DNA of 64,000 nt from Octopus vulgaris (taxonomy: Eukaryota): NCBI GenBank assembly GCA_951406725.2, contig OX597817.1, forward strand, positions 38,130,001 through 38,194,000, given 5' to 3'. Within the stretch, counting starts at the first letter, position 1. Each line of letters opens with the position of its first letter. Made by a program: the position numbers and the translations under genes. Of the stretch, positions 8,481-62,020 are shown piece after piece. The notes beneath the pieces are model-generated. The model had not been told where the DNA came from. It did no database searches and was given only the letters and a program-made list of their open reading frames with translations.

Positions 8481-8686
8481 CTCTTTTACTCTTTTACTTG
8501 TTTCAGTCATTTGACTGTGGCCATGCTGTAGCACCACCTTTAGTCGAGCAAATCGACCCCAGGACTTATTCTTTGTAAGCCTAGTACTTATTCTATCGGT
8601 ATCTTTTGCCGAACCACTAAGTTACGGGGACGTAAACACACCAGCATCGGTTGTCAAGCGATGTTGGGGGGACAAACACAGACACA

Positions 8687-8723
<37 letters not shown>

Positions 8724-8902
8724 ACGTATACATATATACGACGGGCTTCTTTCAGTTTCCACCAACCAAATCCACTCACAAGGCTTTGATCGGCCCGAGG
8801 CTATAGTAGAAGACACTTGCCCAAGGTGCCACGCAGTGGGGCTGAACCCGGAACCATGTGGTTCGTAAGCAAGCTACTTACCACACAGCCACTCCTACGC
8901 CT
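8481..8902 (-). mobile_element. Full-length tRNA-derived SINE, family A (internal CA tract, tail ...TGACTGAAACAAGTAAAAGAG)
   Basis: Minus strand begins AGGCGTAGGAGTGGCTGTGTGGTAAG (A box) ... GGTTCAGCCCC (B-box-like). A near-identical copy is at 49449-49836. Confidence 0.9.
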
Positions 8903-9739
8903 ATAGTTTACATTTATTTCAGAGATTAATGTTGTTGTTGTTGTTTAGGTCCATTTCAGTTTTGATGTAGCAAAACTACGATCAAAAGTTATCCCAATTG
9001 TGACCATCCAGTCTTTTTAGTATTTCAGACGGTGTGTGCAGAACCGTGTCTCTTTTCTGTTTTTTTTTTTTCCGTATTTCATTATTATTTTTAATCTGTT
9101 TTTGGACGGTGCGATATAATGCGAGATATATTTGGCTGCTATTTCTAGCAAGTAGAGCGTTTGTATAAAGACTCTCTAGTTGTTCCATATTGTCTTTGAA
9201 TTGTTGAGATGAGGAATTATACTGATATATTCATGTTGGTGCATTTTGGTCTTTAGGTTCACAACGTGCCAGCAGTTGGACCCAACCCTTCAGATAACTA
9301 TCATACCAGTTTAAATTCTCAGAATTTCAAATTGAACCCCATATTAAATTCACAGAACAGATTATTCTTATTTCGCTGCTCATAACTGATTAGTAATTCT
9401 ATTTGTGATACTGCTAGTTCGTTCTACTAAAAAAAAGGAGTTTTTGACCCAAGTATTAAATTCACATTAACCAGTTAAACTACAGTACTTAACGCGTAAT
9501 TAAAGCTTGTATTAATTATCCCATTAATCAGCATGAACATAAGGTAGTGTAAATTAGAAGCTTAATGACTCTATCTTTTTTTTTAACTAAAGGGACCCCG
9601 CATAGAGACAAACACCAGTTCTTCCCTATGCAAGGCCTAATGAAAATGTTATCGAATATACTGTTTGTTTTTTTTTCAGTCGGATTATATTCAGAGGTTG
9701 TTCCCTAATTATTATCTTGACTGTGTTCCATAGGGATTT

Positions 9740-10550
9740 TCTTCTGCAAGCCCACATTAAGGGATAATACTCAAACTTTGATTCCTATATTTCATAGCGT
9801 GGGAAGCAAAGGATTGTTTGCAGTCAGTAGCATCGAGTAAAATTCGTGATGAATTGGACAGAAACCAACAAGAGGTGATCAGGATTAGAAAGACCCTTCA
9901 GAGTAATAACTACCCTGCAAGCATAGCATCAGCTTCAAAAGGTAGAGATAAAAGGGTCGAAATGGTAAGTAAAAAAGCATATTTTGTCTTACATTAGAGG
10001 CATGCTAGGAAACGATTTCAGATCTGGGGTTCATACTTCAGGTGAGTATTCAAAAATAGGTTAATTTTCTGGGTTTAATCAGAAGGGAACACGACCAAGA
10101 ATTGTATATATTCCATTCGGTGTAATTAATTGTGACAGCGAATATAAAGGTGACTCTAGATCAGTGGTTTTCAACCAGTGTTCCGCGGAACCTTAAGGTT
10201 CCGCCAGTACAGTCCAGGGGTTCCGCAAGAAGTTACAAAACTGCTAAAATCGGCAGTAATTTATAATTCTCCTGTGCAGATATGTGTGCATAAGACTATT
10301 AAATTATTGCACAGGGGTTCCTCGAGCCAGTGGAATGTTTCCTTGGGGTTCCGCTCCAGCAAAAAGTTTGAAAAGCACTGCTCTAGATGAACCCTAAAAG
10401 TAAAGTTAAAGGAATTTGATAGAGTTGCCATCCCCGGAAAACCCGAAAAATCGAGAGTGACAGATGATTTGTGGAAGTAAAAAAAGAAAATCACAAACTT
10501 TTATGGAATAAAGTCAAGATAATAAACGAGGAATAACAGGGTATAATGAG
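9740..10550 (+). pseudogene. Penelope-like element ORF relic (RT thumb plus GIY-YIG endonuclease), interrupted by a hAT MITE
   Basis: KPT... then IRDELDRNQQEVIRIRKTLQSNNYPASI (PLE thumb pattern L..NGYP), then TKNCIYSIRCN-CDSEYKGDSR*TLKVKLKEF (GIY-YIG pattern xIYxIxC..C...YxGxTxR.L..RxxEH). The reading continues across the MITE. Confidence 0.75.
10162..10380. mobile_element. hAT (Charlie/Buster-type) MITE, 219 bp
   Basis: TIRs CAGTGGTTTTCAA / TTGAAAAGCACTG (1 mismatch). Perfect 8-bp TSD CTCTAGAT at 10154-10161 and 10381-10388. Internal GGTTCCGC motifs. Confidence 0.93.
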
Positions 10551-10800
10551 AGGAAGATTTAGTTGCTATTTCTAGCGGGTCGAACGACGCTGTGAGGGTG
10601 AAAAAAGGAACATTGCAAGTGCGTTGCTGCTGCATTTGCCCGTTGCTGCTGTCACTGAAGCATTTGTTGTTGCTACAACAGCTGCAGCAGCAACGAAAGC
10701 AGCTGTAGCAGATTGTGAGCTGTGATTGGTCAGATAGGCAAAGGAGATTATCAGCATATCTTCCTCAGCTGAGATGGTGTTGTAACATCACTAACTGATC

Positions 10801-11095
10801 TATGTATGCATGTATGTATGTATGTATGTATGTATGTATGTATGTATGTATGTATGTATGTATGTATGTATGCATGTATGTCTGCGTGTGTGTATGTATG
10901 TATGTATGTATGTATGTATGTATGTATGTATGTATGTATGTATGCATGTATGTCTGCGTGTGTGTATGTATGTATGTATGTATGTATGTATGTCTGCGTG
11001 TGGGAATGTATGTATGTATGTGTGTATGTCTGCGTGTGTGTATGTATGTATGTGTGTATGCGTGTGTTTACTTGCATGTATGTGTCTTTCTAAAT

Positions 11096-11129
<34 letters not shown>

Positions 11130-11340
11130 GTATACTTGTATATGTGTGTATGTATATAATACATACACACACGCATACATACATACATACATAATACACA
11201 CATATACACATACATACATACATACATACATACATACATACATACATACATACATACATACATACATACATACATACATACATACATACATACATACATA
11301 CATACACACATACATACACACATACATACATACATGCATG
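10801..11340. repeat. (TATG)n higher-order array followed by an opposite-strand (CATA)n array
   Basis: (tatg)n blocks are punctuated by a recurring tatgtctgcgtgtg; the (cata)n block is at ~11175-11335. Confidence 0.95.
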
Positions 11341-11488
11341 TCCTTGTCTTTGATCGCTCAGTTTCTAATTGAGTCTCAGGGTTGCCTCCGTCACATATGG
11401 CGTGTTTTGGATATGTTAAACCTGTTGCAGACCATCTCGCCAAGTTCTCCAGTTCTGACCACAGCCCATATCTTTCAGAGGACGGGGG

Positions 11489-11542
<54 letters not shown>

Positions 11543-11593
11543 AAAAAACAATCGACATGTGTGTGCAGGTGCGCAGAGCTGTATGTCACAGCT

Positions 11594-11626
<33 letters not shown>

Positions 11627-11793
11627 TTACTACTACTACTTCCATATGTTCAATGCTATATATGGCAGTTGTCATTCACAAAATCTCACATTATATGACA
11701 TTCTTCACGCTTATAGTGCCCCACCCACCTTTTGCACACCTAACTCTGTTGTTGTCGGTCGTTGCTACTGTTGTTATTGACAAGATTATTATT

Positions 11794-12278
11794 TGTTTTT
11801 TTTATTACCCACAAGGGGCTAAACATAGAGGGGACAAACAAGGACAGACAAACGGATTAAGTCGTCTGAATCATTCCCAGTGCTTAACTGGTATTTATCC
11901 TATTGAACCTGAAAGGATGAAAGGCAAAGTCGACCTCGGCGTAATTTGAACTCAGAACGTGACGGCAGACGAAATACGGCTACGCATTTCGCCCGGCGTG
12001 CTAACGTTTCTGCCAGCTCGCCGCCCTTTAAAGACAGACGAAATACCTATTTCTTTACTAGCCACAAGGGGCTAAACACAGAGGGGACAAACAAGGACAG
12101 ACAAACGGATTAAGTCGATCACATCGACCCCAGTGCGTAACTGGTACTTATTTAATCGACCCCGAAAGGATGAAAAGCAAAGTCGACCTCGGCGGAATTT
12201 GAACTCAGAACGTAGCGGCAGACGAAATACGGCTACGCATTTCGCCCGGCGTGCTCACGGTTCTGCCAGCTCACCGCC
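11794..12278 (-). mobile_element. Head-to-tail dimer of SINE family B (tRNA-like head, Nin/Deu-like central domain)
   Basis: Two copies (~11794-12026 and ~12044-12278) share GCCGAGGTCGACTTTGCCTTTCATCCTTTC (minus strand). One 17-bp TSD, TTGACAAGATTATTATT, flanks the pair at 11777-11793 and 12279-12295. Confidence 0.9.
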
Positions 12279-12374
12279 TTGACAAGATTATTATTGTTTT
12301 CGTTGTCGTACTTGTTGCTGTTGTTGGTTCATCGTTGTTGTCACCGCCACCGCCGCTGTCGATGTTGTCACTAA

Positions 12375-12592
12375 TTGTTGGCAGAATCGTTTAGCACACC
12401 GAACAAAATGCATAGTCACATTTCGTCCGTCTCTATTATGTACTGAGTTCAAATTCTGTTGTCGCCGCCGACTTTTACCTTTCATTTTTTTTCGGGGTCG
12501 GTAAAATAAGTACCAGCTGGGTACGGGGGTCGATGTAATCGACTTACGCAACATTTCAGGCTTTGTGCCTTGCGCCAGTAGAAAAGATTATT
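12375..12592 (+). mobile_element. Diverged SINE family B copy
   Basis: tggcagaatcgttagcac...ctgagttcaaattc...ggggtcggtaaaataagtaccag...gtcgatgtaatcgactta. Confidence 0.8.
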
Positions 12593-12681
12593 AATTGCCG
12601 TAGAGATATTGTTTTACTTTGCTTGATGTGCATTCCTCCTACTTCTCCTCCTCATCTTCTTTGTTATTCTTCGACTTAAAG

Positions 12682-13090
12682 TTCTTCTTCTTCTTCTTCT
12701 TCTTCTTCTTCTTCTTCTTCTTCTTCTTCTTCTTCTTCTTCTTCTTCTTCTTCTTCTTCCTCCTCATCCTCCTCCTCCTTCTTCTTCTCCTCCTCCTCCT
12801 CCTCCTCCTTCTTCTTCTTCTTCTTCTTCTCCTTCTTCTTCTTCTTCTTCTTCCTTCTCCTCCTTCTCCTTCTTCTTCTTCTTCTTCTTCTTCCTCCTCT
12901 TCTTCTTCTTCTTCTTCTTCTTCTTCTTCTTCTTCCTCCTCCTCATTCTCCTCCTTCTTCTTCTCCTCCTCCTCCTCCTTCTTCTTCTTCTTCTTCTTCT
13001 CCTTCTTCTTCTTCTTCTTCTTCCTCCTCTTCTTCTTCTTCTTCTTCTTCTTCTTCTTCTTCTTCTTCTTCTTCTTCTTCTTCTTCTTCT
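12682..13090. repeat. ~400-bp near-pure polypyrimidine (TTC/CTC)n tract
   Basis: Direct reading; essentially only C and T on the + strand. Confidence 0.97.
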
Positions 13091-46898: not shown

Positions 46899-47264
46899 GG
46901 AAGCACTCCGTCGGTTACGACGACGAGGGTTCCGGTTGATCCGAATCAACGGAACAGCCTGCTCGTGAAATTAACGTGTAAGTGGCTGAGCACTCCACAG
47001 ACACGTGTACCCTTAACGTAGTTCTCGGGGATATTCAGCGTGACACGGCCCTTTGAAATACAGGTACAACAGAAACAGGAAGTAAGAGTGAGAGAAAGTT
47101 GTGGTGAAAGAGTACAGCAGGGATCACCACCATCCCCTGCCGGAGCCTCGTGGAGCTTTAGGTGTTTTCGCTCAATAAACACTCACAACGCCCGGTCTGG
47201 GAATCGAAACCGCGATCCTATGACCGCGAGTCCGCTGCCCTAACCACTGGGCCATTGCGCCTCC
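46899..47264 (-). mobile_element. Full-length tRNA-derived SINE, family C, with 11-bp TSD
   Basis: Minus-strand head GGAGGCGCAATGGCCCAGTGGTTAGG...GGTTTCGATTCCC (A and B boxes). TSD GGATTCCAGGT at 46888-46898 and 47265-47275. The 3' half is shared with 58670-58990. Confidence 0.93.
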
Positions 47265-53875: not shown

Positions 53876-54026
53876 GTGTGTGTGTGTCTGTGCATGTACC
53901 TACATGTTTCTCTGAGAGTATATGTGTGTGTCTGTCTGCATGACTATGAATTAATAAACCTGAAAAGTATGTCTGTGACCGCGTATCTCTCTTCTCTCTC
54001 TCTCTCACTTTCTCTCCCACTCTTTC

Positions 54027-54071
<45 letters not shown>

Positions 54072-54108
54072 GTTTATATATATGTATATGTACATTCTTA
54101 TATATATA

Positions 54109-54172
<64 letters not shown>

Positions 54173-54286
54173 GATATATGTGTGTATACATATACATATA
54201 TGTATATTCTCATATATACACATATTTGTGTCTGCGACTATGTGAGTATTTATCTATCTATCTATCTATACATACATATGTATATG

Positions 54287-54327
<41 letters not shown>

Positions 54328-54584
54328 CCGTGTTTGTATGTATGTATGTATGTATGTATGTATGTATGTATGTATGTATGTATGTATGCAGGCAGGCATT
54401 GTGCGTATATGTGTGTGAGTGTGTAAGTGTGATTGCATGTATGTGAGATTTGACTATGTGTGAACAGAATTCAATGATTTCATAAATCTATATGAGTGCG
54501 CGTGTGCGCGATTAAACGAATAAATAAATCAATTTGTAAATGTGATATGAATGTATGTGTGTGTGCGTGTAAATATAAGAAGCT

Positions 54585-54651
<67 letters not shown>

Positions 54652-54990
54652 CATATATACATACATATATACATATATATATATATGTATGTATGTATAT
54701 ATATATGTATATATATATATATATATACATACATACACATATATCTATATATGTATATATATATATATGTGTGTGTGTATGTATGTATGTATGTATGTGT
54801 ATATATATATATATACGAATATATGTTTGTACGTATGAAATTGTGGTCGGATGACTTTATAAATACATTATTGATTCAGAATGTTTGTGTAACTGTGTGT
54901 ATTATTGCACATATAAACGGATACATTTTTGTATGTATGTATGTGTGTGTGTGTCTGCGTGTGTGTGTGGTCGCGCGCGCGTGTCTGTGT
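50690..54990. repeat. ~4-kb field of compound microsatellites (TA, CA/TG, CT, TATG, GATA/GACA)
   Basis: Direct reading; source of the YI/CV/HT/LSIY pseudo-ORFs. Confidence 0.95.
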
Positions 54991-55467
54991 GTTTCTCAGA
55001 GACTTAATTTTTTTCCATTACAGAATTGAAACCGGTCACTAACAAAGTGGTAAGGTTCTTTCCTTGTTAATGGTCACCTGACGTGTGTGCATGCACGCGC
55101 ATGTGTGTGTGAGTGCGTGTGTAGTGGGTAGTGTGGGTAATTTTCACCTATGTATTGGGAGTCCATGTCTAGTGTAAGGGCTTCATAACTGTTTATGTGG
55201 ACGTATGAATTTAATGTGTACATGTGACTTCGCGTATACGCTCAAATCAGGAACCTCAAATGGAGAATCCCTGGAATGTTTTATCAATTTTCATTGCACT
55301 AGTACTAATCGATTGTATGAAGTGGGTATGAATTAGTTTGCTTTGATATTTGGAGAAAATCCCAGCTTTTATGCTGTTGGGCTTTTACGCAAATTAGTTG
55401 CCACATAACTCAATGCACCTAAAATAATAGGCACAAATTTATCCATGCATGCATGTATGCATGTACA

Positions 55468-55645
55468 TAGGTAGGTAGGTAGGTAGCTAGCTAGCTAGGT
55501 CGGTAGCTAGGTAAGTAGCTAGGTAGCTAGGTAAGTAGCTAGGTAGCTAGGTAAGTAGCTAGGTAGCTAGGTAAGTAGCTAGGTGGCTAGGTAGCTAGGT
55601 AAGTAGCTAGGTAGCTAGGTAGGTAGGCAGGCAGATAGGCAGGTA
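55468..55645. repeat. Minisatellite of ~20-bp unit GTAGCTAGGTAAGTAGCTAG derived from AGGT/AGCT tetramers
   Basis: Direct reading at 55500-55620. Confidence 0.9.
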
Positions 55646-56022
55646 TGAGTGGATTTCTTGTTTGAGCTCATGCTATATGAAAGTGGCAGTTAATTCAGTA
55701 AGATATACCTTTCTATTAATGAAAATTTTACATTAAGGAAGTTACAGAGCCGTCGAGTTGGCAGTCATGAGATCATCGAACAGAATATGTGGTTTTCGGG
55801 CCATGTTTCTGTGCTTCAAGTTCAAAATCAATTGAGGTCAGTTTTGTCTTTCTTCCTTCGAGGGGTATCAATTCAGTTTCTCTGTCTTTCTATTTCCTCT
55901 CAAACGAAGCCGTAAACTTGAGACCTTTTTAACACGCTTATGTATATGTGTGTGCGTGTGTGTGCATGTGTATGTATATATGTATGTGTGTATAATACTG
56001 GTGTTGGATGCTTTTTTTAAAA

Positions 56023-56429
56023 TCTTTTACTTGTTTCAGTCGCTGGACCATAGCCATGCTGGTGCACAAGCTTTGAGGGGTTCAGTCGAACAAATCAAGT
56101 CTGATACTTATTCTATCTGTGTTTTATGCCAGGTTTTATGCTAAGTTTTATGCTAAGTTACCGGGCTGTAAACCATCCAATGCCAGTTGTCAAATGGTGG
56201 AGGGAACAAACACAATACAAACACAAAGATACACACACATACACACACACACACACACACCACACAAACACGCACGCGCGCGCGCGACAGGCTTCCCAGT
56301 TTCCGTCAGCCAACTTCACTCACAAAGTTTTCGTCATATAGTAGAAGAAACTTGTCCAAGGTGCCACGAAGTCAGACTGAAACCTAAACTACATGGTTGT
56401 AAAGTGAGCTTAGCTATTGAGCCATACCT
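56023..56429 (-). mobile_element. Diverged SINE family A copy
   Basis: tcttttacttgtttcagtc...cttgtccaaggtgccacgaagtcagactgaaacc. Confidence 0.8.
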
Positions 56430-56759
56430 GGTTATTATTATTTCTTTTATTTTTGCTTTTTTATGTGTATTGGAAAGGCCCGTTTCAATTTTCTAATTTC
56501 CTGCCGCTCCTCAGTTTCGTTAGTAATCTCAACAATTTTAAGGTTGAGTCAGTCAGATAGCTTTTGGACACCGTGTTACAATCTGAGTCTCATATGATAC
56601 CACTGTATATTTCAATGATCGCTTCCTCATATGGGGAATAAAGAAACAAAGTTTGGTTCCATCTCTGCTGATGCTAATATTTCCAGTTGCTCAGAGTAGT
56701 GTCTTTCTGATATTCTATCTCAATGTCATTAAGTTCTTATCATAAACAGCTCAGAAAAA

Positions 56760-57150
56760 AGTCTGTGTAGTTGAGAAGTTCGCTTTTCAATCATTTGTTT
56801 GGTTCATTTCCACTGCTCAGCACTCTAGATAAATTTCTATATCCTAGGACCGATCAATGCCTCGTTAGTGAATCTGGTAGGCAGAAACTGTGTGGAAGCC
56901 CGTCGTGCATATATGATTGTGTGTGTATGTATATATGCATGCATGCATATGTGTGTGCCTTTGTGCTTGCGTTTGACAATAGTTTGGTTTGTTTACGTCC
57001 CCGTAACTTATTGGTTCAACAAAAGAGACCAATAGAATAAGTACCAGACTTTTAAAAAAAATTAAGTACTGGGGTCGACTTTTTCCTACTGAACTCTTCA
57101 AAGCGGTGCCCCAGCATAGTCGCACTTTAATGTTTAAAACAAGTAAAGAT
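56760..57150 (+). mobile_element. Diverged SINE family A copy
   Basis: ...gaaactgtgtggaagcccgtcgt...gtttacgtccccgtaactta...gcggtgccccagcat...aaacaagtaaagataag. Confidence 0.8.
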
Positions 57151-57301
57151 AAGTATTAGAGTATAAATTCCTTTCAGTGTTTATTGAATACTGTTTGATA
57201 GATACAGTTCTATATTTAAGAGATGAGGAATTATGTACATTATATATATTATTTACATTATTTACATTCGACGGATATTTGTCCTCATCTTGTTTGTTGT
57301 T

Positions 57302-57347
57302 AACACAACGTTTCAGCTGATATACCCTCCTGTCTTCTTCAGGTGTC
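57302..57347 (-). ncRNA. Second minimal type-I hammerhead ribozyme copy (stem II partly mismatched)
   Basis: Minus strand GACAC-CTGAAGA-AGACAG-GAGGGTATAT-CAGCT-GAAACGTT-GTGTT. Confidence 0.6.
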
Positions 57348-58174
57348 TTGGGGAAAGTTCGAACTTGTGTTCTCATTCCTAAGGTATTTTTCGATGTATA
57401 TTATTATTATTGTTATTGTTCAGGTCACTGCTTGGAATCGAACAATGAATCTAAGACAATGAGCTTTCTTATGAAGTCTAAACTATCTTAAACGAACCGA
57501 TGAGTATTCTTTTACTGGTGGCCATGCTTGTATTTCAACCTGGACACATCTCCAAAATTTCTTTGATGTTTCACCATTAATTTGAGATGATATGTTGTGA
57601 TAAGTACGAAATGTTGCCTTGAAAGACAGGTCATTCAGTAAGAGTTTTCCTCACTAAAACTGGATGGTAGTGAATGAAATATCGGTAAATTACCGAAGCG
57701 AAACTCTATGGAAAGATATATAAATAAGGTAGTTAATGAGACTTAAACATCCTGATATACGTGTCTGAAATTGTATTAATAATTCACTGCAAGGAACTGA
57801 AATAACACAGACAGAATATAGATAACAATTTTGTGTCAGGATAATTCTGTACAGGGAAAAACCAAAATTGTATCGCTTCGGAAATATCCCCTACGTTTCA
57901 TAAATCCCCGTAATTATAAAATGTAATACAGCTAATAAATTCATTACATATCAGAAACGAATAAAAGGAAAATTTCCAAAAGTATTTTCGGCTGATATAC
58001 CCTCCAGCCTTCTCCAGGTGCCTTGGGGAAATGTCGAACTTGTGTTCTCATTCCTTAACCACTACGCCATAATCCCGAGTTCGATTCCAAGCAGTGACCT
58101 GAACAATAACAATAATAATAATATATATCGAAAAATACCTTAGGAATGAGAACACAGGTTCGAACTTACCCCAA

Positions 58175-58220
58175 GACACCTGAAGATGGCTGGAGGGTAT
58201 ATCAGCCGAAACGTAGTGTT
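58175..58220 (+). ncRNA. Minimal type-I hammerhead ribozyme (Penelope-type)
   Basis: Stem I GACAC/GTGTT; core CTGAAGA (58180-58186) plus one extra nt; stem II GGCTG/CAGCC; GAAA (58208-58211); palindromic ACGT in place of helix III; predicted cleavage triplet GUA, cut after 58215. Confidence 0.75.
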
Positions 58221-58669
58221 AACAACAAATAAGACGAAGACAAATATCCGTCGAATGTAAATAATGTAAATAATGTACTGTTTGATAGAATCTAATAGTT
58301 TGTTAATATTGGTTAATATTGAACTTTAAAAAAGTTCCGGTGGCCTACAAAGAAATTATGATAGATATTTCTAATTTTGTTGAATCGGTTTCTATATCAT
58401 ATTATGGGAGCAGGTATGTTAATAAATTTGACGACAAAGCAAGGAGCACCACTTATAAACTATCTCCCTGCATGATGCATTTTGATTATATATGATGTTA
58501 GATTCAATGAGTGTGTTCTCAACTGCCAGAAGTAAGGCGAGGTACTGTACCTTAATTTTGTGCTCAATAACAGTTTCTATTTGTTGTGAGATTCTGGTTA
58601 ATTATAAAGCTTTGTTCATCTACGCGTTGCCATGCTATAAAGGTCTTTCTGTTAACCTATGCACAAAAC

Positions 58670-58990
58670 TGGCATTCCGTCGGTTACGACGACGAGTGCT
58701 CCTGTTGATGTATCAATGGAACAGCCTGCTCGTGAAATTAATGCGCAAGTGGCTGAACACTCCACAGACACGTGTATCCTTAACGTAGTTCTCAGGGAAA
58801 TTCAGCGTGATACAGAGTGTGACAAGGCTGGCCCTTTGAATTACAGGTACTACTCATTTTTACCAGCTGAGTGGACTGGAGCAATGTGAAATAGTGTCTT
58901 GCTCAAAGGCACAATGCGCCGCTGAGAATCAAACTCACGACCTTACAATCGTGAGTCGAATACCCTAACCACTAAGCCACGAGCCTTCGC
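58670..58990 (-). mobile_element. tRNA-derived SINE sharing its 3' half with family C but with a different head and middle
   Basis: ccgtcggttacgacgacgag...gaacagcctgctcgtgaaatt...ggccctttgaa is shared with 46899-47070. Minus-strand head GAAGGCTCGTGGCTTAGTGGTTAGGG...GAGTTTGATTCTC. Confidence 0.88.
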
Positions 58991-59148
58991 AATCTCTCCA
59001 TAGCACAATCAAATTCCTCTGATTTTCACTGTTTTCTTCAATAATCATTTTCTTAATCTAATGTATACAATTCCGTGCCTTCTTCCTACCCCGAGGTTAC
59101 TCAGGTGTTGCAATATCATTATTACAAAAAGATGGTTGAAGCACCCAA

Positions 59149-59216
59149 CTATATATTTTATAGACTCTATATATTTTATAGACTCTATATATTTTATAGA
59201 CTCTATATATTTTATA
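59149..59216. repeat. 18-bp tandem repeat, about 3.8 copies (CTATATATTTTATAGACT)
   Basis: Direct reading; explains the KYIESI repeat in ORF 59045-59275. Confidence 0.95.
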
Positions 59217-59549
59217 CACGATGTTCTAGAAAGGTATTCGACAGCAATTTTTAACCAAATGGTTTCAGAAGACATACATTCAGTTGATCAAATCCTTCAT
59301 ACCAATATCATATTATAAATTCTAGACTGTTAGATGATTTCTTCAGAACTTTTAATAACAAACACAAGTACTGTGTCATTTCTTATTCTGATTTCGTTTA
59401 ACATGTTTCCTCACTGTAGTTCTTCCATCTATTCAGACTGTTTTACAAGCTTGTTATTTTTACCCACATAAGTTTCCAATTGTCTGAAAGCGTATTTTCT
59501 ACTCAGTTGTCTCTTACTATTATGTGCCACGTATTAAGTAGTTACGATA

Positions 59550-60170
59550 GATCTTGTAGTTATTGTATTGTATTTCATTTCGTATAAGTTCGTGTTTCAG
59601 TTTCTATAGTTTAATATCCAATCTATCAATGTTACGACCACAAAATACTTTTGGAAATTTTCCTTTTATTCGTTTCTGATATGTAATGAATTTATTAGCT
59701 GTATTACATTTTATAATTACGGGGATTTATGAAACGTAGGGGATATTTCCGAAGAGATACAATTTTGGTTTTTCCCTGTACAGAATTATCCAGACACAAA
59801 ATTGTTATCTATATTCTGTCTGTGTTATTTCAGTTCCTTGCTGTGAATTATTAATACAATTTCAGACACGTATATCAGGATGTTTAAGTCTCATTAACTA
59901 CCTTATTTATATATCTTTCCATAGAGTTTCGCTTCGGTAATTTACCGATATTTCATTCACTACCATCCAGTTTTAGCGAGGAAAACTCTTACTGAATGAC
60001 CTGTCTTTCAAGGCAACATTTCGTACTTATCACAACATACCATCTCAAATTAATGGTGAAACATCAAAGAAATTTTGGAGATGTGTCCAGGCTGAAATAC
60101 AAGCATGGCCACTAGTAAAAGAATGCTCATCGGTTCATTTAAGATAGTTTAAACTTCATAAGAAAGCTCA
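59550..60170 (-). pseudogene. Putative Polinton/Maverick minor capsid (penton) gene relic
   Basis: Starts MSFL. Frameshifted DKYE/VALKDRSFSKSF resembles the penton G.WEVAL.EI.YP.SW motif. Later PVIIKCN...PKVFCGRNIDRLDIKL. Motif match from memory only. Confidence 0.4.
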
Positions 60171-60179
60171 TTGTCTTAG

Positions 60180-61175
60180 ATTCATGTCGAAACCTCTTGC
60201 ATAGGAAAAGCATACAATCGTAACCTGTTTCTAGCATTAATGATACTACAACTTACTTCAATCCTGCTGTTGGCATTAACGTTGTTATTATACCCTGTAT
60301 CACTATCTGGTGTATTATGATGGACAGGATTATGAGTCTATGTTCAATTGGAGGTAATATGGAGTAATTTAATACATTTTGCTTCTTGAGATGCTTTGGA
60401 TAAAAGTCAAGTTCCATAGATGTTTCAGTTTCGGTATAAAACAATGAGGTGTAGACTCATACTTCGTACAATCCTTATAAAATTCTTTACTGTTAAAGAT
60501 GTAACTCGACTTTATATTTTGATCGATATGACAAAAAATGTTTTCCTGGATAAGGTAGAGATTTATATTCAATACCTCAAATTCATCCTGTGAATATTCT
60601 TTACTTGATTGCCATTTTCATAATGAGAACTTGAAATGATGTGCTTTTAATAACTAAAATTTCCTGGCAACGTACAAATTGCAATCACCTATGGCCTATG
60701 TATCCAGATTTTAGTATGTTAAATCAAACTTACCAGGATCAAACTGCATGTTCATCAATTTACCTGTTTATTGCATTTCTATGGAGTTTCGAAATCTTAA
60801 TAAAGAAAACTTTTTGAATTGATGACTCGGGATTTATTTCACTTACCTTTTAAGGGACTGGAGTATATGGATTGCTTTTATTGTCAAACAATGATCTATT
60901 TTGTAAAGTTCGGAAGTTGTTGCCCTGTAAAATGTTTTAGGAATGTTGTTGTTTTATGTGATTTGCTTTTGTTTTTTGTTTTTGTTTTACTTCCATTAAT
61001 TTCTCCAGTCGCCCTGGTTCCTATTCTATACCATTTTTTCGTTATCATTTTTCACGAGTCCCTGCGTCCAAGAATTTTTTTTAATTTTTTATTTTGGCCT
61101 CCATCTCTGAGACATATTTAGGTTACATGCGCGCACGCATATAGATACACTGATGCGTGCGCGCGTGCAGCCTAA

Positions 61176-61206
<31 letters not shown>

Positions 61207-61355
61207 ATAATAAATAAGGGCAACACGAAAAAAAATTTCTCTGCTAAAGAAATTTTTTCCTTTTTTCCCTTATCTATAATAGCATTTATAATTTTCACGT
61301 TAAAAGGTATTATTCATTTGCTGGCCACTCATAAAATTTTATCCTTATTTTAGAA

Positions 61356-61407
<52 letters not shown>

Positions 61408-61506
61408 ATACACATACATACATACATACATACATACGTACGTACATACATACATACATACATACATACATACATACATACATACATACATACATACATA
61501 CATACA

Positions 61507-61537
<31 letters not shown>

Positions 61538-62020
61538 GTATATACGTACACACGCGCGCGTTCATATTCTGTATTGCTGAGATAAATTGATTTGGTTTCA
61601 TGTCAGTCTTCAAGAAAGAGAATTTGGAGCCAGTTCAAATTTCGGAGTTCTTTCTTAATGAGCTCCAGTAAATCTTGTAGAAATTCAAACTGAAAAGTCT
61701 TGAAGTAATTCATGTGAGGTTTTTTTTTATTCTACACAATACAATTTATATTTGACTGTCAGGGGAGATTCTTGGAGTCACGTTCCCATTGCGAATTAGT
61801 TCTATCTCTACAGATGTGATACAGACATCTAAAGTAGAATGTCCCTGATTTCGTAGAAGATCACGAGTCCTATAAGCATGATTGTCTGGGAAGTAAATCT
61901 GGTATTCTGTATATTGATAGACATATTGGGACTTTCCTGAGATTACGTGAACTTCCTAGCAATTTGAGGTTTTTAAGATTTAAATAATTCAAAAGAATTA
62001 TATACGCATGTTGAATTTAG
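60180..62020 (-). pseudogene. Putative Polinton/Maverick major capsid (double jelly-roll hexon) gene relic, split by microsatellites
   Basis: Motifs in the expected order: CVYNSFELFKS*KPQIA, ITSVEIELIRNG, QDLLEL..ILFLED, IGDCNLYVARK, IQENIF..FNSKEFYKD..TPHCF, TPDSDTGYNNNVNANSRIEV. Many stops and frameshifts. Confidence 0.5.

Follow-up and report, generated by a model that had tools for sequence, protein, structure and literature searches.

The stretch analysed here (hereafter the window) comprises 64,000 nucleotides of the Octopus vulgaris genome (assembly GCA_951406725.2, contig OX597817.1, positions 38,130,001 to 38,194,000), and towards its end it contains a rearranged repeat in which a tRNA-like head is found together with a minimal hammerhead motif. 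A first-pass annotation had read this repeat as a hybrid of a short interspersed element (SINE) and a retrozyme, transcribed by RNA polymerase III (Pol III), self-cleaving and mobilised by a Penelope reverse transcriptase (RT). The locus raises the questions of (i) whether such a unit exists intact elsewhere in the genome; (ii) whether it is a SINE in its own right or part of a larger element; and (iii) whether its head and its hammerhead are likely to serve as promoter and ribozyme. Our analysis shows a family of Penelope/Poseidon type whose pseudo-long terminal repeat (pseudo-LTR) carries a tRNA-derived head and most copies of which consist of the pseudo-LTR alone; the unit is the whole pseudo-LTR of this decayed element and not a separate SINE with a borrowed Penelope end. 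In the reading that we favour, to which we assign a probability of about 0.7, the tRNA-like head of this pseudo-LTR is likely to be an internal Pol III promoter, and the short RNAs made from it would be copied in trans by the RT-endonuclease of the element into SINE-like insertions.

The genome searched comprises 2.8 Gb in 227 contigs. A query taken from the window (58070-58280) yielded 3,224 first-look candidates, 40 of which were scored, giving 46 matches; among the scored candidates, full-length matches outside the window are 85–93% identical to the query. The intact unit is about 296 bp long and consists of the tRNA-like head, an AAT run, the minimal hammerhead and a 33-nt tail. A box, a stretch resembling an anticodon arm, B box, AAT run and hammerhead motif follow one another collinearly in 26 of 28 loci fetched from outside the window, the exceptions being L019, which is cut within the A box, and L007, in which the complete head is found on the inverted arm only. 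The unit that the first-pass annotation had reconstructed from rearranged pieces is thus seen directly. A 25-nt head pattern has at least 2,521 exact matches in the genome, while its reversed control has none, an abundance that is not due to chance. The family is also present in sequence runs X15-X20 of five coded organisms (A–E), with word shares of 0.38–0.46, and is probably common to related species.

In two loci, the end of an endonuclease-like open reading frame (ORF) lies directly upstream of the head, and that stretch was used as the next query. It gave 2,385 candidates, from which 30 loci were fetched, the query locus included. The unit, whole or partial, follows the ORF end in 29 of these 30 loci, beginning about 30 nt past the stop codon, and the junction between ORF end and head has 184 exact matches in the genome. 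The 3' half of the unit is itself an ATG-started frame: in the order head, AAT run, ATG, hammerhead motif and tail, it provides the first ~53 codons of the ORF, which span both the hammerhead and the tail. The frame continues, with hammerhead and tail, into the RT ORF in L109 and L111, while in L106 and L128 only the tail end does so. As the tail, or hammerhead plus tail, precedes the ORF in L109, L111, L233 and L248, pseudo-LTR sequence is present at both ends of near-full copies.

The comparison of the 3' half with Penelope pseudo-LTRs, which had been proposed earlier, therefore identifies it as the start of a Penelope ORF and not as a LINE (long interspersed element) tail. A classical SINE with a LINE-shared 3' tail is thereby ruled out, the insertions being of Penelope type as well (see below), and so is a family separate from its autonomous partner, since the ORF-bearing element contains the unit in full. 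What stands of the earlier description is a Penelope-mobilised unit with a collinear tRNA-like head and a minimal hammerhead; its status as an independent SINE hybrid does not, because the head belongs to the ORF-bearing element.

The ORF protein contains an RT domain (RVT_1, E 5.5e-10), and DKG and YVDD motifs are present in ORF copies. Although individual copies are all broken, the column-majority frame is open for 848 codons. The protein is 34–68% identical to nine RT proteins, one of them from Anolis sagrei, but only 24–28% identical to two Neptune-type ORFs of the octopus genome, and its C-terminus aligns end to end with P0026, P0031 and P0113, with no CX2-5CxxC zinc-finger linker. On the basis of the RT domain, the lack of this linker and the identities to RT proteins, we provisionally call the family Penelope/Poseidon-type. 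A distant-relative protein (42% identical) used as a query led back to the same family: all of the 30 top loci belong to it and all are broken, with L233 and L248 near full length. A Neptune-type Penelope family with a 781-aa ORF (L061, L062) was considered as a partner and rejected, as only microsatellite and 16–23-nt chance matches to it were found (30 + 10 loci) and a hammerhead of this type is absent. That Neptune-type family is young, with many open 781-aa frames (L061 1744-5006, L062 930-6172); it has a second, upstream ORF of 333–359 aa and 456-bp direct repeats of 99% identity, and a pattern search detected no hammerhead in it.

Where copies begin and end was surveyed in 29 score-ranked and 30 position-ordered loci (59 in total). 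In the position-ordered set, which holds the first 30 exact matches to the head, the 5' end of 25 copies lies no more than about 20 nt upstream of the A box, mostly 5–14 nt, and the other five copies enter the ORF, a ratio of short copies to ORF-linked heads of roughly 5:1; most copies are therefore short, SINE-like forms. When compared with random truncation at the rate observed in the ORF (mean 355 nt, 29 copies), this pile of 5' ends has P<1e-17, even if a 50-nt window is allowed. Thirty copies were chosen because they continue past the tail into the ORF; of these, 27 break off before reaching the 5' end of the head, three reach it and stop there, and none extends beyond it. Since 25 of 30 5' ends pile up at the head and all three copies that reach it also stop there, short and ORF-containing RNAs both seem to start at the head, the alternatives for this boundary being a Pol II start or stalling of the RT at a small palindrome. 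The unit has two discrete 3' ends, 33 nt apart, which lie 60 and ~90 nt past the predicted hammerhead cut. In L025 (1707-2082), the insertion of a different repeat has separated the short 3' end of a copy from its tail.

An inverted partner arm, arranged head-to-head, was found in 21 of the 29 score-ranked and 19 of the 30 position-ordered loci (40 of 59). Of these pairs, 18 of 21 score-ranked and 14 of 17 scoreable position-ordered ones (32 of 38) carry the tail on just one arm; three of each set have it on neither arm, and none has it on both. Penelope-like elements (PLEs) often have an inverted 5'-truncated partner and a 30–40-bp tail at one end only (PMC8557442), and in the Poseidon element of anoles reverse transcription starts internally at two points that bound the tail, and the ORF begins at the hammerhead (PMC11167929). 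Sequence in common with a Penelope/Poseidon-type ORF, inverted arms and a one-sided tail all bear out the earlier proposal that a Penelope enzyme mobilises the unit.

Two further features accompany these arms. By pattern, an inverted head copy stands immediately before the 5' end in 7 of 30 loci, forming a palindrome around a small start hairpin (examples are L017, L018, L140, L144, L160 and window positions 58056-58071), which suggests hairpin-primed second-strand synthesis. Among 30 loci, the ORF start breaks 229–239 nt past the tail in seven (L176, L178, L183, L189, L190, L195, L202), six of which jump to another pseudo-LTR at that point, and a second cluster of breaks lies 117–120 nt past the tail (L193, L196, L197, L198, L200); these clusters may mark additional reverse-transcription starts or switches driven by microhomology. 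Head-to-tail arrays of whole units were not seen in the 59 loci, with which the earlier retrozyme label fits poorly, although the genome could hold arrays elsewhere; partial direct repeats are present in L029, L131 and L150.

The head aligns best to the tRNA-Arg(TCT) genes of the genome, over 69 columns and with a score of 63–64 (59 in L185), as opposed to maxima of 47–53 for shuffled sequences. As the comparison set represented only 10 anticodon types, in 35 genomic tRNA sequences, the arginine isotype is provisional. Both the A and the B box are the majority state in 62 heads. A second B-box-like stretch, GGTTCGAA(C/A) at 58158-58166, lies inside the ORF start and is not taken as a promoter.

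Pol III terminates at TTTT. On the sense strand of the ORF, no TTTT is shared among 14 aligned long copies, in which ten private runs occur, and the 848-codon majority frame has no T4 run at all, as compared with 2.95 after synonymous codon shuffling (P=0.023) and 3.9 expected with Neptune codon usage (P=0.017). The two Neptune-type ORFs, which are of similar T content, contain eight T4 runs each. The absence of TTTT fits Pol III read-through, but is suggestive only. In three unstranded RNA runs from one study, 8,631–12,802 reads were placed on a copy comprising ORF end and unit, and loose read ends mark both 3' ends as well as the 5' boundary followed by the inverted head, that is, the genomic structure. 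A Pol III promoter is likely for the short form; for the whole coding element putative Pol III transcription is tentative, at somewhat less than even odds. Equally tentative is the fullest version, an autonomous element whose ~2.9-kb RNA would be made wholly by Pol III from the tRNA-derived pseudo-LTR promoter, its 848-codon ORF being kept free of TTTT and translated cap-independently. Reverse transcription by Penelope enzymes begins within the pseudo-LTR, for which reason such an element would be both a Penelope element and its own SINE.

The hammerhead of the window has a CUGAAGA core, one extra nucleotide, a 6-bp helix II, GAAA, a palindromic ACGU and a 5-bp helix I, and the minimum free energy fold of 58175-58220 forms helices I and II (-11.8 kcal/mol). 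Core, extra nucleotide before helix II, long helix II, short helix I and helix-III palindrome are the majority state (147–164 copies), and the motif matches the Penelope minimal consensus as given in the available text of PMC4209133. The predicted cut triplet is GUU in 143 of 164 copies and GUA in the window, where it is one of two rare letters. The sole polymorphic position is the free N7 (95 T and 66 A in 164 copies). No copy ends at the predicted cut; as all copies keep sequence on both sides of it, the hammerhead is probably dispensable for insertion. For anole Poseidon, too, cleavage is described as not needed for insertion, with which copies that never end at the cut agree (PMC11167929). 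We predict that the hammerhead, inherited from the Penelope element, cuts only as a dimer or with the help of protein. No joint at the predicted cut was found among the RNA joints listed and no pile-up of ends, the unstranded library being unsuited to circular RNA; nor did RNA ends, which the first-pass annotation had proposed to look for at the GUA/GUU site, accumulate in the three runs. In viruses, self-cleavage can promote cap-independent translation (PMC13725137, in the part available); since the predicted cut lies 70 nt inside the ORF, such a route would need a later start codon.

We propose the following cycle. Transcription would start at a G situated some 14 nt upstream of the A box, and each solo or 3' pseudo-LTR would yield a short RNA, to be copied in trans by the RT-endonuclease. 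The enzyme would bind the ORF-start region, and reverse transcription would then initiate internally, at one end of the tail or the other, with one start per target strand; two such starts would account for the inverted pair and for the tail on one side only, as in vitro for anole Poseidon (PMC11167929). The end of the cDNA may then fold back on the small palindrome of the head and copy itself, giving inverted head fragments, and template switches may add arms and local DNA, as at the window locus. From a pseudo-LTR upstream of the ORF, the same promoter might read through ~2.9 kb that lack TTTT to give a protein-coding RNA, a step for which we hold the odds to be slightly below even.

A number of results weigh against this reading. 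On the protein side, Pfam GIY-YIG had no match on two endonuclease-side fragments, the YIG position reading YKG in most copies, and no intact ORF copy was found, the longest open stretch in 30 loci being 569 aa. For the head, Rfam (54000-62000, 58040-58300 and a whole copy, E<=10) called neither a tRNA nor a hammerhead on the unit, its other matches being microsatellite noise, ARAGORN detected no tRNA in the window, and the head does not fold as a cloverleaf. As neither program calls them, the identities of tRNA-like head and hammerhead rest on motifs, fold and alignment, and the Rfam check for a hammerhead family suggested earlier came back empty for both the window stretch and the whole copy. 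The stem covariation looked for at the same suggestion was likewise absent (three double changes over 11 pairs in 164 distinct copies), in a test of little power because the copies of one family carry mostly neutral decay. Only 28 of the 164 copies keep core, stems and ACGU intact, and a dimer fold, computed for the window copy, lacks the ACGU helix III. The N7 position is also a third codon position (Glu/Asp), so that protein constraint explains its variation too. Target duplications of >=12 nt occur in only 5 of 29 loci, and only three copies bear on where ORF-containing transcripts begin. The TTTT test is post hoc, one-tailed and modest, and lacks a Poseidon-clade control, because all of the 30 Poseidon-like loci fetched belong to the tRNA-headed family; with the 42%-identical protein query and a stricter first look, no Poseidon-type family without the head appeared in the top 30 loci. 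Finally, the three unstranded RNA runs show no pile of starts or ends anywhere on the copy, and 67–71% of the placed reads continue into unlike sequence, as expected of copies inside host transcripts.

Some of these points would suit an ordinary Penelope element whose pseudo-LTR holds an internal promoter for Pol II; the tRNA-like stretch would then be a SINE relic in the 3' untranslated region, and 5' ends would pile up at the Pol II start or at an RT-stalling hairpin. The Penelope element of Drosophila has a TATA-less, LINE-like internal promoter (PMC2377424), and solo truncated copies with hammerheads are common among Penelope elements generally (PMC4209133), to the extent that these sources were available. 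There is, moreover, a small palindrome at the 5' boundary, inverted head fragments recur, and the RNA data contain no defined starts. Nevertheless, the boundary lies upstream of the A box at the distance usual for Pol III starts, the two boxes are the prevailing state across the heads, and a shared TTTT is missing throughout the ORF, for which reasons we consider a Pol II origin unlikely.

The independent, non-autonomous hybrid, which would combine a SINE with a Penelope 3' part and cycle through cleaved or circular RNA, is very improbable, its independence being largely refuted by the ORF-bearing element that carries the same head. A tRNA SINE must once have contributed the head, the excess of short copies is as such a hybrid would have it, and Sm-alpha offers a precedent (PMC6765202, in part). 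However, the surveyed loci hold neither whole-unit head-to-tail arrays nor copies ending at the predicted cut, and the 3' ends coincide with the tail ends, beyond the cut. The hammerhead-like fold might also be a mere by-product of ORF-start coding sequence with no catalytic role, as the motif lies wholly within the ORF, neither covariation nor an Rfam match was obtained, and GUU is a weak hammerhead cleavage triplet. This we regard as quite unlikely, given that the core, G10.1-C11.1, the extra nucleotide, both helices and the palindrome all fit the Penelope minimal-hammerhead consensus (PMC4209133) and that the anole Poseidon hammerhead overlaps the ORF start in the same way and cuts with the help of protein (PMC11167929), both in the portions available. 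The Pol III-driven pseudo-LTR of a Penelope/Poseidon-type element thus remains the reading that we prefer.

The window locus can be laid out as a single insertion (57203-58275) between identical 14-bp target duplications (Table 1). The motifs of the first-pass annotation are all found where it had placed them, whereas the 33-nt tail, the target duplication and the captured 544-bp segment had been overlooked. Arms 57245-57443 and 58079-58277 are 94% complementary across 199 nt. The captured segment is single-copy DNA with no other full match in the genome. While the arms diverge from each other by 6–10%, in a family whose mean pairwise identity is 89%, the captured segment differs by only 2% from its source; we infer that the arms derive from different RNAs and that the insertion event postdates most of the family.

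Table 1. Layout of the insertion in the window (positions of the 64,000-nt stretch).
Feature	Position	Strand	Remarks
Left target-site duplication, 14 bp, TACTGTTTGATAGA	57189..57202	+	Same letters as 58276-58289
Arm 1, inverted unit copy, from inside B box to tail end	57203..57443	-	187/199 identical to arm 3; reaches reference position 296
33-nt Penelope-type optional tail	57203..57235	-	Arm 1 only; ORF codons ~43-53
Arm 1 hammerhead motif	57302..57347	-	Core intact, helix II with two mismatches; from sequence
Captured 544-bp inverted copy of 59642-60185	57445..57988	-	Within target duplication; 534/544 identical
Arm 2, 70-bp inverted fragment	57986..58055	-	63/70 identical to arm 1 and to arm 3
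Arm 2 truncated hammerhead	57986..58022	-	Ends after GAAA, one core change; from sequence
Inverted tRNA-like head fragment with A box	58056..58071	-	From sequence
A-box-like motif TGGCGTAGTGGTTA	58056-58069	-	From sequence
Arm 3, forward copy, from just before B box to short 3' end	58072..58275	+	No tail; 88–94% identical to other genomic copies
B-box-like motif AGTTCGATTCC of tRNA-like head	58078..58088	+	From sequence
AAC/AAT microsatellite (AAT-rich) spacer	58102..58122	+	Length varies between copies
Penelope ORF start	58146..58275	+	ATG at 58146; stop private to window copy at codon 29
Minimal type I hammerhead motif	58175..58220	+	Predicted cut after 58215; motif, fold, copy alignment
TGTAAATAA repeats at short 3' end	58256..58275	+	Putative inner reverse-transcription start
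Right target-site duplication	58276..58289	+	Same as 57189-57202
Source of captured segment	59642..60185	+	1.35 kb downstream of insertion

Near this insertion, at 58672-58990 on the minus strand, lies a second, unrelated tRNA-headed repeat, for which Rfam gives a tRNA score of 26.4 bits at 58920-58981 (cut-off 29). Its head is nearest to tRNA-Thr/Cys in the small comparison set, its body occurs again at 46903-47070 (82%), and it has an A-box motif, but no hammerhead, in common with the unit. A tetranucleotide-based tandem array at 55423-55670 and three copies of an 18-bp unit at 59149-59219 are ordinary simple repeats.

Among tRNA-derived repeats of octopus, Ohshima and Okada reportedly described the SINEs OK, OR1 and OR2 in 1994; these are reported to be tRNA-derived and of similar size. 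The short form may already be catalogued as a plain SINE, whether by Ohshima and Okada (1994) or in Repbase or Dfam. A recent octopus repeat annotation leaves most recently active SINE families unclassified and, in the part available, makes no mention of hammerheads (PMC13282606).

As far as the available portions of the literature go, the element resembles Penelope/Poseidon PLEs such as the anole PAc in having an RT followed by a C-terminal, putative endonuclease region without a zinc-finger linker, a minimal hammerhead in the pseudo-LTR that overlaps the ORF start, a 30–40-nt optional tail within the ORF start, an inverted 5'-truncated partner and AT-rich targets (PMC11167929; PMC8557442; PMC4209133). 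It differs from them in that the octopus pseudo-LTR opens with a tRNA-like head carrying an A and a B box, TTTT is missing from the sense strand, and about five-sixths of the head-bearing copies consist of nothing but the pseudo-LTR, sharply bounded on the 5' side. The combination of Pol III transcription with a hammerhead, which the first-pass annotation held to be rarely if ever described, is known from the schistosome repeats Sm-alpha and Sj-alpha, which are tRNA-related, SINE-like and apparently transcribed by Pol III (PMC6765202, PMC2770079). Those repeats are arranged in tandem and released from multimers by cleavage, after which the promoter sits at the 3' end of each unit, and no partner is named for them in the accessible text, whereas the octopus unit has a minimal hammerhead, dispersed copies or inverted pairs, and its parent element as partner. 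A small-RNA-derived Pol III promoter in the terminal repeat of a retrotransposon is also found in TRIMp3 (Cassandra, Helenus, Ajax), but these are non-autonomous LTR elements whose autonomous partners are argued to require Pol II, while the octopus head sits in an ORF-bearing Penelope (PMC10886601). Animal non-LTR retrozymes are likewise short and effectively non-coding, with a type I hammerhead and a proposed origin from Penelope pseudo-LTRs; they are, however, defined by tandem arrays and circular RNA, neither of which was seen for the octopus unit, and the accessible text of the sources mentions neither a tRNA head nor Pol III for them (PMC7229834; bioRxiv 10.64898/2026.07.22.740005). We found no published description of a tRNA head in an ORF-bearing Penelope pseudo-LTR, although Repbase, Dfam or the supplements of PMC8557442 and PMC13282606 may already hold the family.

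The window locus itself provides a Penelope-type insertion that copied 544 bp of nearby unique DNA in inverted orientation. SINEs are defined as parasites of LINEs, and autonomous retrotransposons are taken to need Pol II. The family described here shows a sequence route by which the terminal repeat of a Penelope element gives rise to SINE-like copies, and shared sequence identifies the partner. Annotation would list copies of this kind as plain SINEs, so that Penelope elements may account for part of the SINE content that is left unclassified in such genomes. Should the head drive the ORF as well, the element would furthermore provide a natural long mRNA made by Pol III and selected against terminators, as well as a simple system in which to test whether the Penelope hammerhead serves in processing, in translation or in nothing at all.
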